Shown: in pieces, positions 31,000 through 57,464 of the stretch
Layout: each line of letters starts with the position of its first letter
Numbering within the stretch: position 1 is the stretch's first letter
Assembly (NCBI RefSeq): GCF_016903815.1
Contig: NZ_CP069973.1
Length of the DNA stretch: 64,000 nt
Origin: Escherichia coli
Lineage (GTDB): Bacteria; Pseudomonadota; Gammaproteobacteria; Enterobacterales; Enterobacteriaceae
Strand: one strand, 5' to 3'
Made by a program: the position numbers and the translations under genes
The notes under the pieces: generated by a model
What the model saw: the letters and a program-made list of their open reading frames with translations, nothing else
Databases searched by the model: none
Told to the model about the DNA's origin: nothing

Positions 31000-31095
31000 A
31001 TAAAAAAATAGAGCCTGTCGACATCCGCCAGACTCTACAGTACACACAGCAGTGCATCCTCGTCTTAAATCCGGCCTGGGGTCCTGGTGGCCGGT
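31000..31095 (-). ncRNA. mcaS: sRNA McaS (IsrA)
   Basis: Minus strand reads accggccaccaggaccccaggccggatttaagacgaggatgcactgctgtgtgtactgtagagtctggcggatgtcgacaggctctatttttttat. The 3' ~70 nt match my memory of K-12 McaS nearly exactly, including the terminator. The 5' stem-loop differs. Confidence 0.85.
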
Positions 31096-54925: not shown

Positions 54926-55447
54926 TGAAAATTCCTCAAGTTGGAGAGTTCTGGAACATTAAGGCGAGGTGGCAGTAATGCACCATCTGTAATCTTTTGA
55001 TACTGACGTAATCGGGCCTGATGTGCAACGCCTTGCAAGTATGTAACTCATTGAAAACGATCATTTTTATCTATTGACATCAAATGGCAAACTGTCATTG
55101 TGCGGCTATGGCAAGTGGCAAATGCTTATAAATCATATGGATATAAATAGTACAGAAAGAGTTGTTTTCTCTAGGATATGAGTATACGCCCAATGCTGAT
55201 TGGTTGAATTTTGTTCTTGTTTTAAAGGGTAAGAGTTTAAAGTGTTGGCAGTGATGTATTGGATAGTTAGAATTGCTGTGGGTGCTTGAGGCTATCTGCC
55301 TCGGGCATGAACACCAAAGGTAGATAGAGAAAAGCCCCAGTTAACATTACGCGTCCTGCAAGACGTTTAACATTAATCTGAGGCCATATCTATGCGACAC
55401 ATAGAGATTAGCCTCTTACGGACCGAAAGGTCAAGGAGAAGCAGGCT

Positions 55448-55573
55448 ATGAAGCAGCAAAAGGCGATGTTAATCGCCCTGATCGTCATCTGTTTAACCGT
55501 CATAGTGACGGCACTGGTAACGAGGAAAGACCTCTGCGAGGTACGAATCCGAACTGGCAGACGGAGGCTCTGA
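55448..55573 (+). pseudogene. hok-family type I toxin gene, divergent/truncated at the 3' end (41 codons)
   Basis: MKQQKAMLIALIVICLTVIVTALVTRKDLCEVRIRTG is identical to my memory of HokD/RelF. It then reads RRRL-stop instead of QTEVAVFTAYEPEE. The upstream leader (gcttgaggctatctgcctc..., gattagcctcttac..aaggagaag) resembles hok/sok leaders. Confidence 0.75.
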
Positions 55574-55655
55574 TTCGTAGACTACTAATCTGAGTAAAAG
55601 ACCCAGCGGGGAAAGAACCACGCCGGGACTAGTTAATAAGATATTTATAGCGTGG

Positions 55656-55997
55656 CTATTCTTTTTTTGCGGTATAGACTTTTTCGCCTGAGAAGTCTGG
55701 AGCTACCCAAAAGTTAATATTAAACTGAGCATCATCGCTTAGTTCAACACGGTGCCAGTATTGTGGTGGGCTTGTTGCAAAAGCGCCAGCATTAATGACT
55801 ACTTTTATCTCCGGTTCAGTAGCATTCTCATCAGCAAAACCATAATATGTTACAGTACCTTCCATCACGCATAACTGTCCAAAAACACCTGCTGCTGTAT
55901 TATGATGTGTTAATAACGCTGAAGGTACGTTCTCTTTTGTGAAGAACGGAGTTGAGCGTTTGATTACCCAGTCTTTAGGAATTCTCTTGTGTGTCAT
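55656..55997 (-). CDS. DUF1971 / YeaR-like (TehB-related) protein
   Basis: 113 aa from MTHKRIPKDWVIKRSTPFFTKENVPSALLTHHNT... It is alignable by eye to E. coli YeaR (..HTRSTPFWNK..YLGYADE..EP..FNIDFFVAP..). Confidence 0.7.
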   Translation of the reverse strand: MTHKRIPKDWVIKRSTPFFTKENVPSALLTHHNTAAGVFGQLCVMEGTVTYYGFADENATEPEIKVVINAGAFATSPPQYWHRVELSDDAQFNINFWVAPDFSGEKVYTAKKE

Positions 55998-56864
55998 AAC
56001 CACCTCCCATAAAACATGCATTATAAATGCACCTTTTTGAGGGTTATGTCAAGCTGTTATGAAACACATAATTGATATGTTGATTAGAGGAGAAGATAGA
56101 ATCAATATGGTTGTTTTTCGTATAACTATTTGTTTTACTTTTAGTTTGTGCATTCTGTGTGTTAGGAATAACTTATTAAAGTTTAACTAAAAAATCTCGA
56201 TATAGTCCGCATAGATTACTGTTACTGAATCTTATTGTGTGCATTAGTTGTGTTCTGAAATTTCAATTTAATTACTTATGATATATTTTTAACGATAAAT
56301 GTTTTCCGGGTTAAAGACAGTGGGGGATGAGATAAGCAATATATCATTAATCTTGATTATTTCCAGGATGCCTTTACTGTGCATATAAATAAATCATATA
56401 CGCATCAAATAATGTAAAGGCATCCTTTTAGATATATCTTATCAAATGTTAATGATTTGAGTGGGAAACATGATTCCAGAAACTAATCATGCGGCTACTT
56501 TATAAAAATAATGCCCATATAAAACAGCCAGCGAAAAGGATTACGGATAAAAAAGGAGCGAGATGTGCATAGTTGTTATTTTCCATGTTTAACCACCTTA
56601 AATAATTGATGATGACGGGATGTGCATCTGTAATGCTTTTGTTGAAATGTTATGATAAAAAAGAACTTTTTCATAACATTAAAATGTAATTTATCTAATC
56701 GTTTTTAATAATAAGTGTTGTATTTCTATCCTTGTATCAGCTATTTGATATGTAGTGTTTGTTCATGTTATGTGGAGCTTTACACCATAGCCAGTTTATT
56801 TATACTTTATTCGTCAGCCTGAACAACTGGCATCTGCTGCACTGCGCCATCGAGAGATTGAGAA

Positions 56865-57464
56865 ATGGCGCATATACAACTGGTCAAACAAACCTCTTCT
56901 GGACTACTTCTCCCGGCGACGCCGGAGAGTTGCGATTTTTTGCATCAAATCAAAATAGGCGAGTGGATACACGCAGACTTTAAGCGTGTGCGTAACTACG
57001 CATTCCACAAGCGTTTTTTCAAACTCCTGCAACTGGGATTCGATTACTGGACTCCGGTCGGTGGGGCGATCACGCCTCGCGAACGAAAGCTGGTTTCAGG
57101 ATTCGTTGATTACCTATGTGAATCAGTAGGCCGGGAACATACGCCAGCTCTGAGCGAAGCCGCAGAGCAATATCTGAATACAGTTGCGACACGCAGAACC
57201 CGGGATACGGCATTGCTAAAGTCGTTTGAGGCTTTCCGCGAGTGGGTAACCATTCAGGCCGGATTTTACACCGAGCATCTTTATCCTGATGGTAGCCATG
57301 GGCGTCGGGCGAAATCCATCGCTTTTGCGAATATGGACGAAACCGAGTTTCAGCAGGTTTATAAATCTGTTCTGAATGTGCTGTGGAACTGGATTCTGTT
57401 CCGTAAATTTTCCTCTCCGGAACAAGTCGAAAATGTGACCGCGCAGCTGCTGGAGTTTGCGTAA
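56865..57464 (+). CDS. DUF1367-family nin-region protein
   Basis: 199 aa, immediately upstream of and coupled to the YbcO-like gene. The family call is from memory of lambdoid nin regions. Confidence 0.65.
   Translation: MAHIQLVKQTSSGLLLPATPESCDFLHQIKIGEWIHADFKRVRNYAFHKRFFKLLQLGFDYWTPVGGAITPRERKLVSGFVDYLCESVGREHTPALSEAAEQYLNTVATRRTRDTALLKSFEAFREWVTIQAGFYTEHLYPDGSHGRRAKSIAFANMDETEFQQVYKSVLNVLWNWILFRKFSSPEQVENVTAQLLEFA

Follow-up and report, generated by a model that had tools for sequence, protein, structure and literature searches.

Within a 64,000-nucleotide (nt) stretch of Escherichia coli DNA (contig NZ_CP069973.1 of assembly GCF_016903815.1, referred to here as the window and used for all coordinates), a first-pass annotation made from the sequence alone had described a hok/sok-type type I toxin-antitoxin locus with a decayed 3' end, and we confirm that this observation is real. 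In a scan of the whole window, the Rfam sok family (RF01794), a model that spans the structured hok mRNA leader and the overlapping antisense Sok region, matches positions 55280-55450 on the plus strand over the full length of its model (positions 1-157) with 101.5 bits (gathering score 59, E = 7e-22), compared to 106.7-122.3 bits for intact hok loci. The 41-amino acid (aa) open reading frame (ORF) that follows matches Pfam HOK_GEF (PF01848) with 59.1 bits (cut-off 22) over profile positions 1-34 of 42, while intact HokW scores 81.1 bits over positions 1-42. Together, the two scores from the window place the match far above chance. The element that hosts the locus is a Rac-type lambdoid prophage in the E. 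coli chromosome, and E. coli 7/2 as well as three deposited prophage records show the identical order of genes around it (DUF977, hypothetical, KilA-N on the minus strand, hok, DUF1971 on the minus strand, DUF1367, YbcO and a Q-like gene). The coordinates of the individual features are collected in Table 1.

As judged from sequence, the control elements of the 5' half (promoter, leader, mok, ribosome-binding site, Sok promoter and Sok terminator hairpin) all appear to be present and to be essentially identical to those of intact hokD and hokW loci. Between 55366 and 55554 a single difference separates the window from the intact hokD loci of CFT073 and strain 3059; this base, 55366, lies in the Sok terminator stem, and 55367-55554 are identical. 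The predicted start of the hok transcript lies near 55280, where the Rfam match begins, and the leader carries gcttgaggctatctgcctc at 55285-55303. The mok-like ORF in this leader is identical in sequence to that of the intact CFT073 and strain 3059 loci, and it ends in a TGA that shares bases with the hok ATG at 55448 (ATGA), an arrangement that suggests translational coupling. A ribosome-binding site, aaggagaag, precedes the hok start at 55433-55441. The first-pass annotation had listed the leader, the mok ATG at 55392, aaggagaag and an interval of about 80 nt to the next gene, and each of these lies exactly where it had been placed, the distance from the hok stop to the stop of the convergent DUF1971 gene (55656) being 82 nt.

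On the opposite strand, a Sok promoter had been proposed as TTGACC-17 nt-CTAATC, with the second hexamer at 55411-55406. This string is present, but an 18-nt spacer followed by TAATCT fits the -10 consensus better and is the version given in Table 1. The site was not picked up by a strict consensus promoter scan. It lies where the annotated sokW RNA of phage 933W has its 5' end, and both the predicted promoter and the predicted RNA are collinear with sokW. The predicted Sok RNA folds with -26.7 kcal/mol (z = -4.3) and has the architecture of the annotated SokW of 933W (-29.9 kcal/mol). Outside the dense block of lesions described below, the private point changes are those at 55279, 55321, 55366 and 55555, and all four are C>T transitions on the plus strand; that at 55321 converts a G-C pair of the first leader hairpin to G-U, and that at 55366 costs the Sok terminator stem one pair.

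The toxin ORF, by contrast to its intact relatives, ends after 41 codons, as the first-pass annotation had reported. Residues 1-37 are identical to HokD, whose sequence as used in that annotation proved correct when checked against CFT073 and a published supplement. A full-length Hok/Gef protein (~49-55 aa) consists of an N-terminal transmembrane helix and a periplasmic tail; in the window the tail is RRRL followed by a stop, with a second in-frame stop beyond it, and the C-terminus of the HokD/RelF subtype (...GQTEVAVFTAYEPEE) is absent from the product. Alignment to intact loci resolves a cluster of lesions at this point: a C>T change at 55555; a 1-nt deletion in GG(C/T)CAG, by which the ggccag or ggtcag of intact loci became the 'ggcag' at 55556-55560 that had already been noticed; a net loss of 2 nt in a scrambled block at 55568-55573, which creates the TGA; a nonsense change, GAA>TAA, at 55586; a deletion of 3 nt; and a G>A change at 55598. 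The three small deletions total 6 nt. Private events are thus concentrated in the 44 nt of 55555-55598, which hold at least six, compared to two in the 275 nt of 55280-55554 (Fisher p = 1e-4).

Translated in the hok frame, the window reads ...RIRTG RRRL stop FVDY stop SE stop, that is, a frameshifted patch and two in-frame stops, where HokW reads ...RIRTG QTEVAV FVDY E SEK stop (its tail being ...RIRTGQTEVAVFVDYESEK, then stop); a repair of the 41-aa ORF would restore ...GQTEVAVFVDYESEK. The remnant tail codons, TTCGTAGACTAC, encode FVDY and are of HokW type, not the FTAY of HokD. A recognizable remnant of a HokW-type C-terminus therefore survives in the hok frame behind the premature stop, and the first-pass claim that the normal C-terminus is absent in every frame needs correction. 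Homology to hok continues beyond the frameshift, as 55558-55612 aligns to the 3' end of hokW with 83% identity and a score of 64 against 15.2 +/- 2.3 for shuffled sequences (z ~21).

These alignments also bear on how the ORF was broken. It had been suggested that a single insertion of a moron, the cassette carrying the adjacent DUF1971 gene, cut the hok ORF at the frameshift, such that the point of truncation is the point of insertion. The cassette does abut the locus and the 3' untranslated region (UTR) is cut short; nonetheless, hok homology runs for ~55 nt past the frameshift and places the junction 40-60 nt downstream of the break in the ORF. Moreover, the lesions of the ORF are small deletions and point changes located 40-57 nt upstream of that junction, and the segment 55558-55612 does not belong to the cassette in its other contexts. 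The single-insertion account is refuted by the alignments and we regard it as having next to no chance of being correct.

In addition to the tail of its toxin, the locus has lost the 3' elements that govern a hok mRNA. Homology to hok ends at ~55612, cutting the original 3' UTR ~40 nt past the original stop codon. Each of the four intact loci used for comparison carries a conserved 3' segment with the fold-back inhibition (fbi) element, TCTGATGTG.CAGGCAT.CTCAA.GCACCCG, that base-pairs with the first 25 nt of the transcript at -27.6 to -28.7 kcal/mol. In the window, the 5' end finds its best partner within the DUF1971 gene, at a non-homologous site whose pairing energy of -23.9 kcal/mol is at noise level (shuffled sequences, -20.9 +/- 2.6). 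A motif search found no fbi motif near the locus, and a search for an fbi-like pairing partner downstream of the ORF or anywhere in the window likewise found none, in line with the first-pass view that the 3' fold-back region is too short. The 3' stem-loop has fared no better: the 933W locus has a hairpin of -17.7 kcal/mol just after its stop codon, of which the window keeps the left arm only. In sum, the locus retains the leader with its overlapping Sok region and the mok ORF of a hok/sok module, together with a predicted Sok promoter and terminator, and lacks the full-length toxin, the fbi element and the 3' stem-loop.

What now follows the left arm is a chimeric hairpin that spans the junction (Table 1). 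On the minus strand it folds with -17.5 kcal/mol (z = -4.3) and is followed by UCUUUUAC, while on the plus strand it folds with -13 kcal/mol and lacks a U tract; it is probably the terminator of the minus-strand DUF1971 gene. A scan of 55574-55700 found no plus-strand terminator after the hok relic, and as a consequence transcripts initiated at the strong hok promoter would continue into the convergent DUF1971 gene in antisense orientation.

Table 1. Positions of the hok/sok relic and of the adjoining cassette in the window
Feature	Coordinates	Strand	Description and basis
hok/mok promoter	55245..55273	+	-35 TTGGCA, 17-nt spacer, -10 TAGAAT; 10/12 matches in consensus scan
hok mRNA 5' leader	55280..55450	+	holds 5' tac element (GGGTGCTTGAGG, 55280-55291) and Sok target region; Rfam RF01794
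Sok antisense RNA (predicted, ~70 nt)	55330..55399	-	short 5' target-recognition part, then long terminator stem-loop and UUUU
mok leader ORF	55392..55451	+	19 codons (MRHIEISLLRTERSRRSRL, then stop); ATG at 55392, TGA overlapping hok ATG (ATGA); translation
Sok promoter (putative)	55405..55434	-	-35 TTGACC (55434-55429), 18-nt spacer, -10 TAATCT (55410-55405); read from sequence
Truncated hok ORF	55448..55573	+	41 aa (MKQQKAMLIALIVICLTVIVTALVTRKDLCEVRIRTGRRRL); transmembrane helix and Cys30 kept, residues 38-41 (RRRL) from shifted frame; ORF list, Pfam
Lesion cluster with HokW-type C-terminal codon remnant	55555..55598	+	pairwise and multiple alignments, translation
Junction hairpin	55599..55630		left arm (AGACCCAGCGGGG) is the last hok 3' UTR homology, right arm is DUF1971 cassette flank
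DUF1971 (YeaR/TehB-like) gene	55656..55997	-	Pfam PF09313, 91.5 bits (cut-off 23.1); PGAP coordinates from identical locus; convergent with hok
AT-rich cassette spacer	55998..56814		~800 nt, short ORFs only; 25-33% G+C over 56000-56800 (composition profile)

The left junction of the cassette falls within 55599-55630, and on its other side homology to phages with the order hok-rem-DUF1367 resumes at ~56815, 50 nt ahead of the DUF1367 start at 56865, as indicated by the alignment to Rac-SA53 and by BLAST matches that begin at query position 1276-1277. The alignments thus describe a replacement and not a simple insertion, in which ~0.5 kb comprising the hok 3' UTR and rem, as found in Rac-SA53, was swapped for the ~1.2-kb cassette. 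Fbi, the right arm of the 3' terminal stem-loop and the neighboring rem gene all went with the replaced segment. The DUF1971 gene and its AT-rich spacer stand beside DUF1367 in 448 E. coli genomes, mostly without hok on the left, and the cassette in other prophages is 94.7% identical to the window from 55660 onward. The short interval 55599-55648 bears a weak similarity to the cassette flank of other prophages (72% identity, z ~3).

Several observations on the cassette itself can be added. An older, more decayed hok relic to the left of the cassette in other prophages (L005-L007) was considered and rejected, given that the similarity is marginal and confined to 55599-55648, that Pfam reports nothing for the small hydrophobic ORF located there (described below) and that Rfam reports nothing above noise. 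In one of these prophages (L007) the cassette lies between IS3-family elements. Its AT-rich spacer might serve the DUF1971 gene as a promoter or as a silencing region. Some ~200 nt to the left of the DUF1971 gene, other Rac-like prophages (L005, positions 2174-2287, and L006) carry a small hydrophobic ORF of 37 aa, MRLIQGVVVLVLKCALAIAAVMAIYCLAVVLMERLSD, which in a further contig, L013, lies directly upstream of the decayed hok promoter. This ORF is without a Pfam match, Rfam reports nothing near it, and it may encode an unrelated small membrane peptide or toxin.

To place the decayed allele in its population, we examined complete E. coli genomes. Hok-like loci are present in 4,717 of 5,426 such genomes, with a median of two per genome that has any, and the segment containing the lesions and the junction (55535-55665) was found in 103 of the 5,426, in 102 cases at 99% nucleotide identity or more. 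No intermediates, whether the cassette beside an intact hok or a partial set of lesions, were found in these 5,426 genomes, the next best matches being ordinary hok loci at 84% or less. The junction motif is absent from GTDB species representatives and occurs in seven IMG/VR contigs, all of which carry the full set of lesions and five of which are identical to the window. The decayed allele is near-clonal: it is a single near-identical allele and not a diverged, conserved family, and the conserved family of 41-aa Hok variants that the first-pass annotation had named as a refutation of its pseudogene reading does not exist. An assembly artefact as the source of the allele can be rejected, as the same allele is found in 103 complete genomes. 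The three identical "phage" records mentioned above were also considered as proof of an active phage and rejected as such, as they are PHASTER-predicted prophages of clinical isolates and not isolated virions.

The two IMG/VR contigs that depart from the window are informative. One (L013) has the same 3' lesions and cassette and combines them with a CFT073-type leader and another upstream flank, with the exchange point between 55321 and 55366, a mosaic that indicates recombination inside the locus. The other (L015, IMGVR_UViG_3300007747_000074) carries the same allele with a further 93-nt deletion, corresponding to window 55371-55463 and flanked by TTAA-like microhomology, that takes out the mok start, the Sok promoter and 5' end, the hok ribosome-binding site and the hok ATG. 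This deletion points to continuing decay of the locus.

Could the 41-aa peptide nonetheless be a functional short Hok variant, in which the transmembrane helix suffices for membrane damage and control is exerted by mok coupling and Sok without fold-back inhibition? Its N-terminal 37 codons and upstream expression signals are identical to those of intact hokD loci, the exact protein is found on at least 1000 contigs of a large collection and is annotated as a protein, and single alanine substitutions of conserved residues of Hok from R1 (including E41A and E49A) did not abolish toxicity. However, a frameshifted patch and two in-frame stops followed by recognizable remnant codons are a signature of decay and not of a new C-terminus, all carriers share one near-identical allele with no sign of purifying selection, and the start codon is deleted in L015. 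Studies of R1 hok further indicate that the C-terminal part of the protein matters: 18 of the 20 possible single-step stop codons are loss-of-function, and toxicity is abolished by Y48N, by loss of the stop codon and by a C-terminal FLAG tag (PMC9841398), while a truncated Hok control was non-toxic. HokB requires a C29-C46 disulfide for its toxicity, and in hokD editing converts codon 46 to Cys (bioRxiv 10.1101/2025.08.07.668861); the residue equivalent to Cys46 is absent from the 41-aa product. The part of the Hok-diversity preprint catalogue considered here contains no RRRL variant. On this basis we consider a functional short toxin unlikely, and the product, which has no periplasmic tail and hence no Tyr/Cys-46-equivalent residue, should be non-toxic or much less toxic than an intact Hok.

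A second possibility is that the locus acts as an antitoxin only, with Sok from the intact 5' half silencing co-resident hokD- or hokW-type loci of prophages and plasmids, in the manner of anti-addiction or cross-immunity. The predicted Sok promoter and terminator are intact in sequence, the Sok region is of CFT073 type save for one base in the terminator stem, and targets would be plentiful given the prevalence of hok-like loci in E. coli noted above; such a role would also account for the pristine 5' half. However, recent recombination with intact loci, or gene conversion by them, would account equally well for the conservation of the 5' half (L013 is an example of such an exchange), and the Sok promoter is lost in L015. 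We judge an antitoxin-only role improbable. We assign a similarly small probability to the broader idea that the 5' half is kept on purpose, be it as a Sok-only anti-addiction module or as a promoter for regulated transcription antisense to the DUF1971 gene. If it were true, a broken toxin-antitoxin locus would have been co-opted for regulation. Nothing supports selection on either Sok or the N-terminal peptide, and L015 argues against it.

We therefore return to the reading that best accommodates the locus as a whole, namely that it is very probably an ordinary relic, a hok/sok-type type I toxin-antitoxin module with an intact 5' half and a decayed 3' half. It is a pseudogenized member of a very well-known family in which decayed loci are familiar. 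Four points weigh against this conclusion. A 5' half that is pristine, including 37 codons, the translation signals and both promoters, is unusual in a dead gene and could reflect a retained function. In this Hok subtype, a toxin truncated after residue 37 could retain activity. The deletion in L015 was assembled from a metagenome and may be an artefact of that assembly. Lastly, the locus is not unannotated everywhere: the three GenBank prophage records leave the 41-aa ORF without annotation, and in RefSeq PGAP lists it as a "Hok/Gef family protein" (WP_001445775.1) without a pseudogene flag.

How a relic of this kind would behave can be sketched from the R1 hok/sok system, in which pairing of the mRNA ends (tac with fbi) keeps the full-length transcript inert until slow 3' processing yields a translatable, Sok-sensitive form, and in which a weaker 3' terminal stem leads to elimination of the active mRNA (PMC9841398). 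The hok/mok mRNA and the Sok RNA are probably still transcribed from the relic. An mRNA without fbi would have no inert, long-lived folded form and hence would provide no reservoir for post-segregational killing, and one without the terminal hairpin should be unstable as well. Because it would lack an inert reservoir and a protective 3' hairpin and would encode a peptide without a periplasmic tail, the module would be unable to perform post-segregational killing or a lysis-assisting role. At most, it may yield Sok RNA and some antisense read-through into the DUF1971 gene. Chromosomal hok/sok systems have also been reported more generally to be unable to mediate post-segregational killing (bioRxiv 10.1101/2025.08.07.668861, introduction).

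With respect to its history, the lesion cluster and the cassette seem to travel as one unit, while the 5' half may be passed between phages through homologous recombination or gene conversion, with intact hok loci as donors, as far as homology reaches. Exchange of the 5' half within hok, of which L013 records one instance, would explain how a pristine 5' half came to adjoin a 3' end riddled with lesions.

Among the closest known systems, hokW-sokW of the Stx2 phage 933W and Sakai prophage Sp5 has the same leader, Sok region and Hok N-terminus and 91% identity over window 55268-55611. Both loci are in lambdoid prophages, and the C-terminal remnant codons of the window (FVDY, SE) are of HokW type. 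They differ in that hokW is intact at 51 aa and has fbi, a 3' stem-loop and a 70-codon in-frame mok, whereas the window has 41 aa, no fbi and a 19-codon mok. HokW is experimentally toxic and hokW-sokW assists the release of Sp5 (PMC8621323). The two mok architectures occur among otherwise very close hok loci, the 19-codon ATGA type in the window and CFT073-type loci and the 70-codon mokW, annotated in frame with hokW, in 933W (L002, positions 1625-1837); two leader indels, of 2 nt and 1 nt, account for the difference.

The hokD loci of CFT073 and strain 3059 (WP_000813254.1, named "type I toxin-antitoxin system toxin HokD" by PGAP) share with the window the short ATGA-coupled mok, and the segment over which they are 1 nt apart, 55366-55554, takes in the Sok promoter, most of the Sok RNA, mok, the ribosome-binding site and codons 1-36. 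They differ in encoding a full 51-aa HokD (...QTEVAVFTAYEPEE), in having a 3' UTR with fbi and in their promoter flank. In the flank upstream of the promoter the window is closest to Rac-SA53, with 12 differences in 50 nt compared to 23-24 for the other three references. The hok-rem-DUF1367 region of Rac-SA53 occupies the same slot in a Rac-type phage and matches downstream through DUF1367, YbcO and Q, but its hok is intact and is followed by a full 3' UTR and then rem, where the window has the 1.2-kb cassette. E. coli K-12 hokD/relF presents the mirror image of the window, in that its toxin ORF is intact and its 5' regulatory half (mok, sok and leader) is lost; BLAST against K-12-type genomes covers window 55434-55611 only. 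Both belong among the hok-family loci of chromosomes or cryptic prophages in which parts required for regulated killing are gone. The chromosomal hok loci of K-12 were reportedly found by Pedersen and Gerdes in 1999 to be inactivated by insertion sequence (IS) elements and rearrangements.

The locus has little import beyond annotation: the RefSeq "Hok/Gef family protein" is almost certainly a pseudogene remnant, and counts of functional hok toxins in E. coli prophages, together with predictions of defence or addiction drawn from them, should leave this allele out. It does offer a tidy case of modular decay in a type I toxin-antitoxin locus and of mosaic recombination inside one in lambdoid phages. 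Should the relic still make Sok, hok loci elsewhere in the cell could be affected.

Elsewhere in the window, Rfam matches were obtained for McaS/IsrA at 31000-31095 on the minus strand, FnrS at 38739-38856 on the plus strand and the RalA antitoxin RNA at 43166-43344 on the plus strand, which together locate the window at the Rac prophage region of E. coli. RalR/RalA is thus a second type I toxin-antitoxin system within the same prophage as the hok relic.

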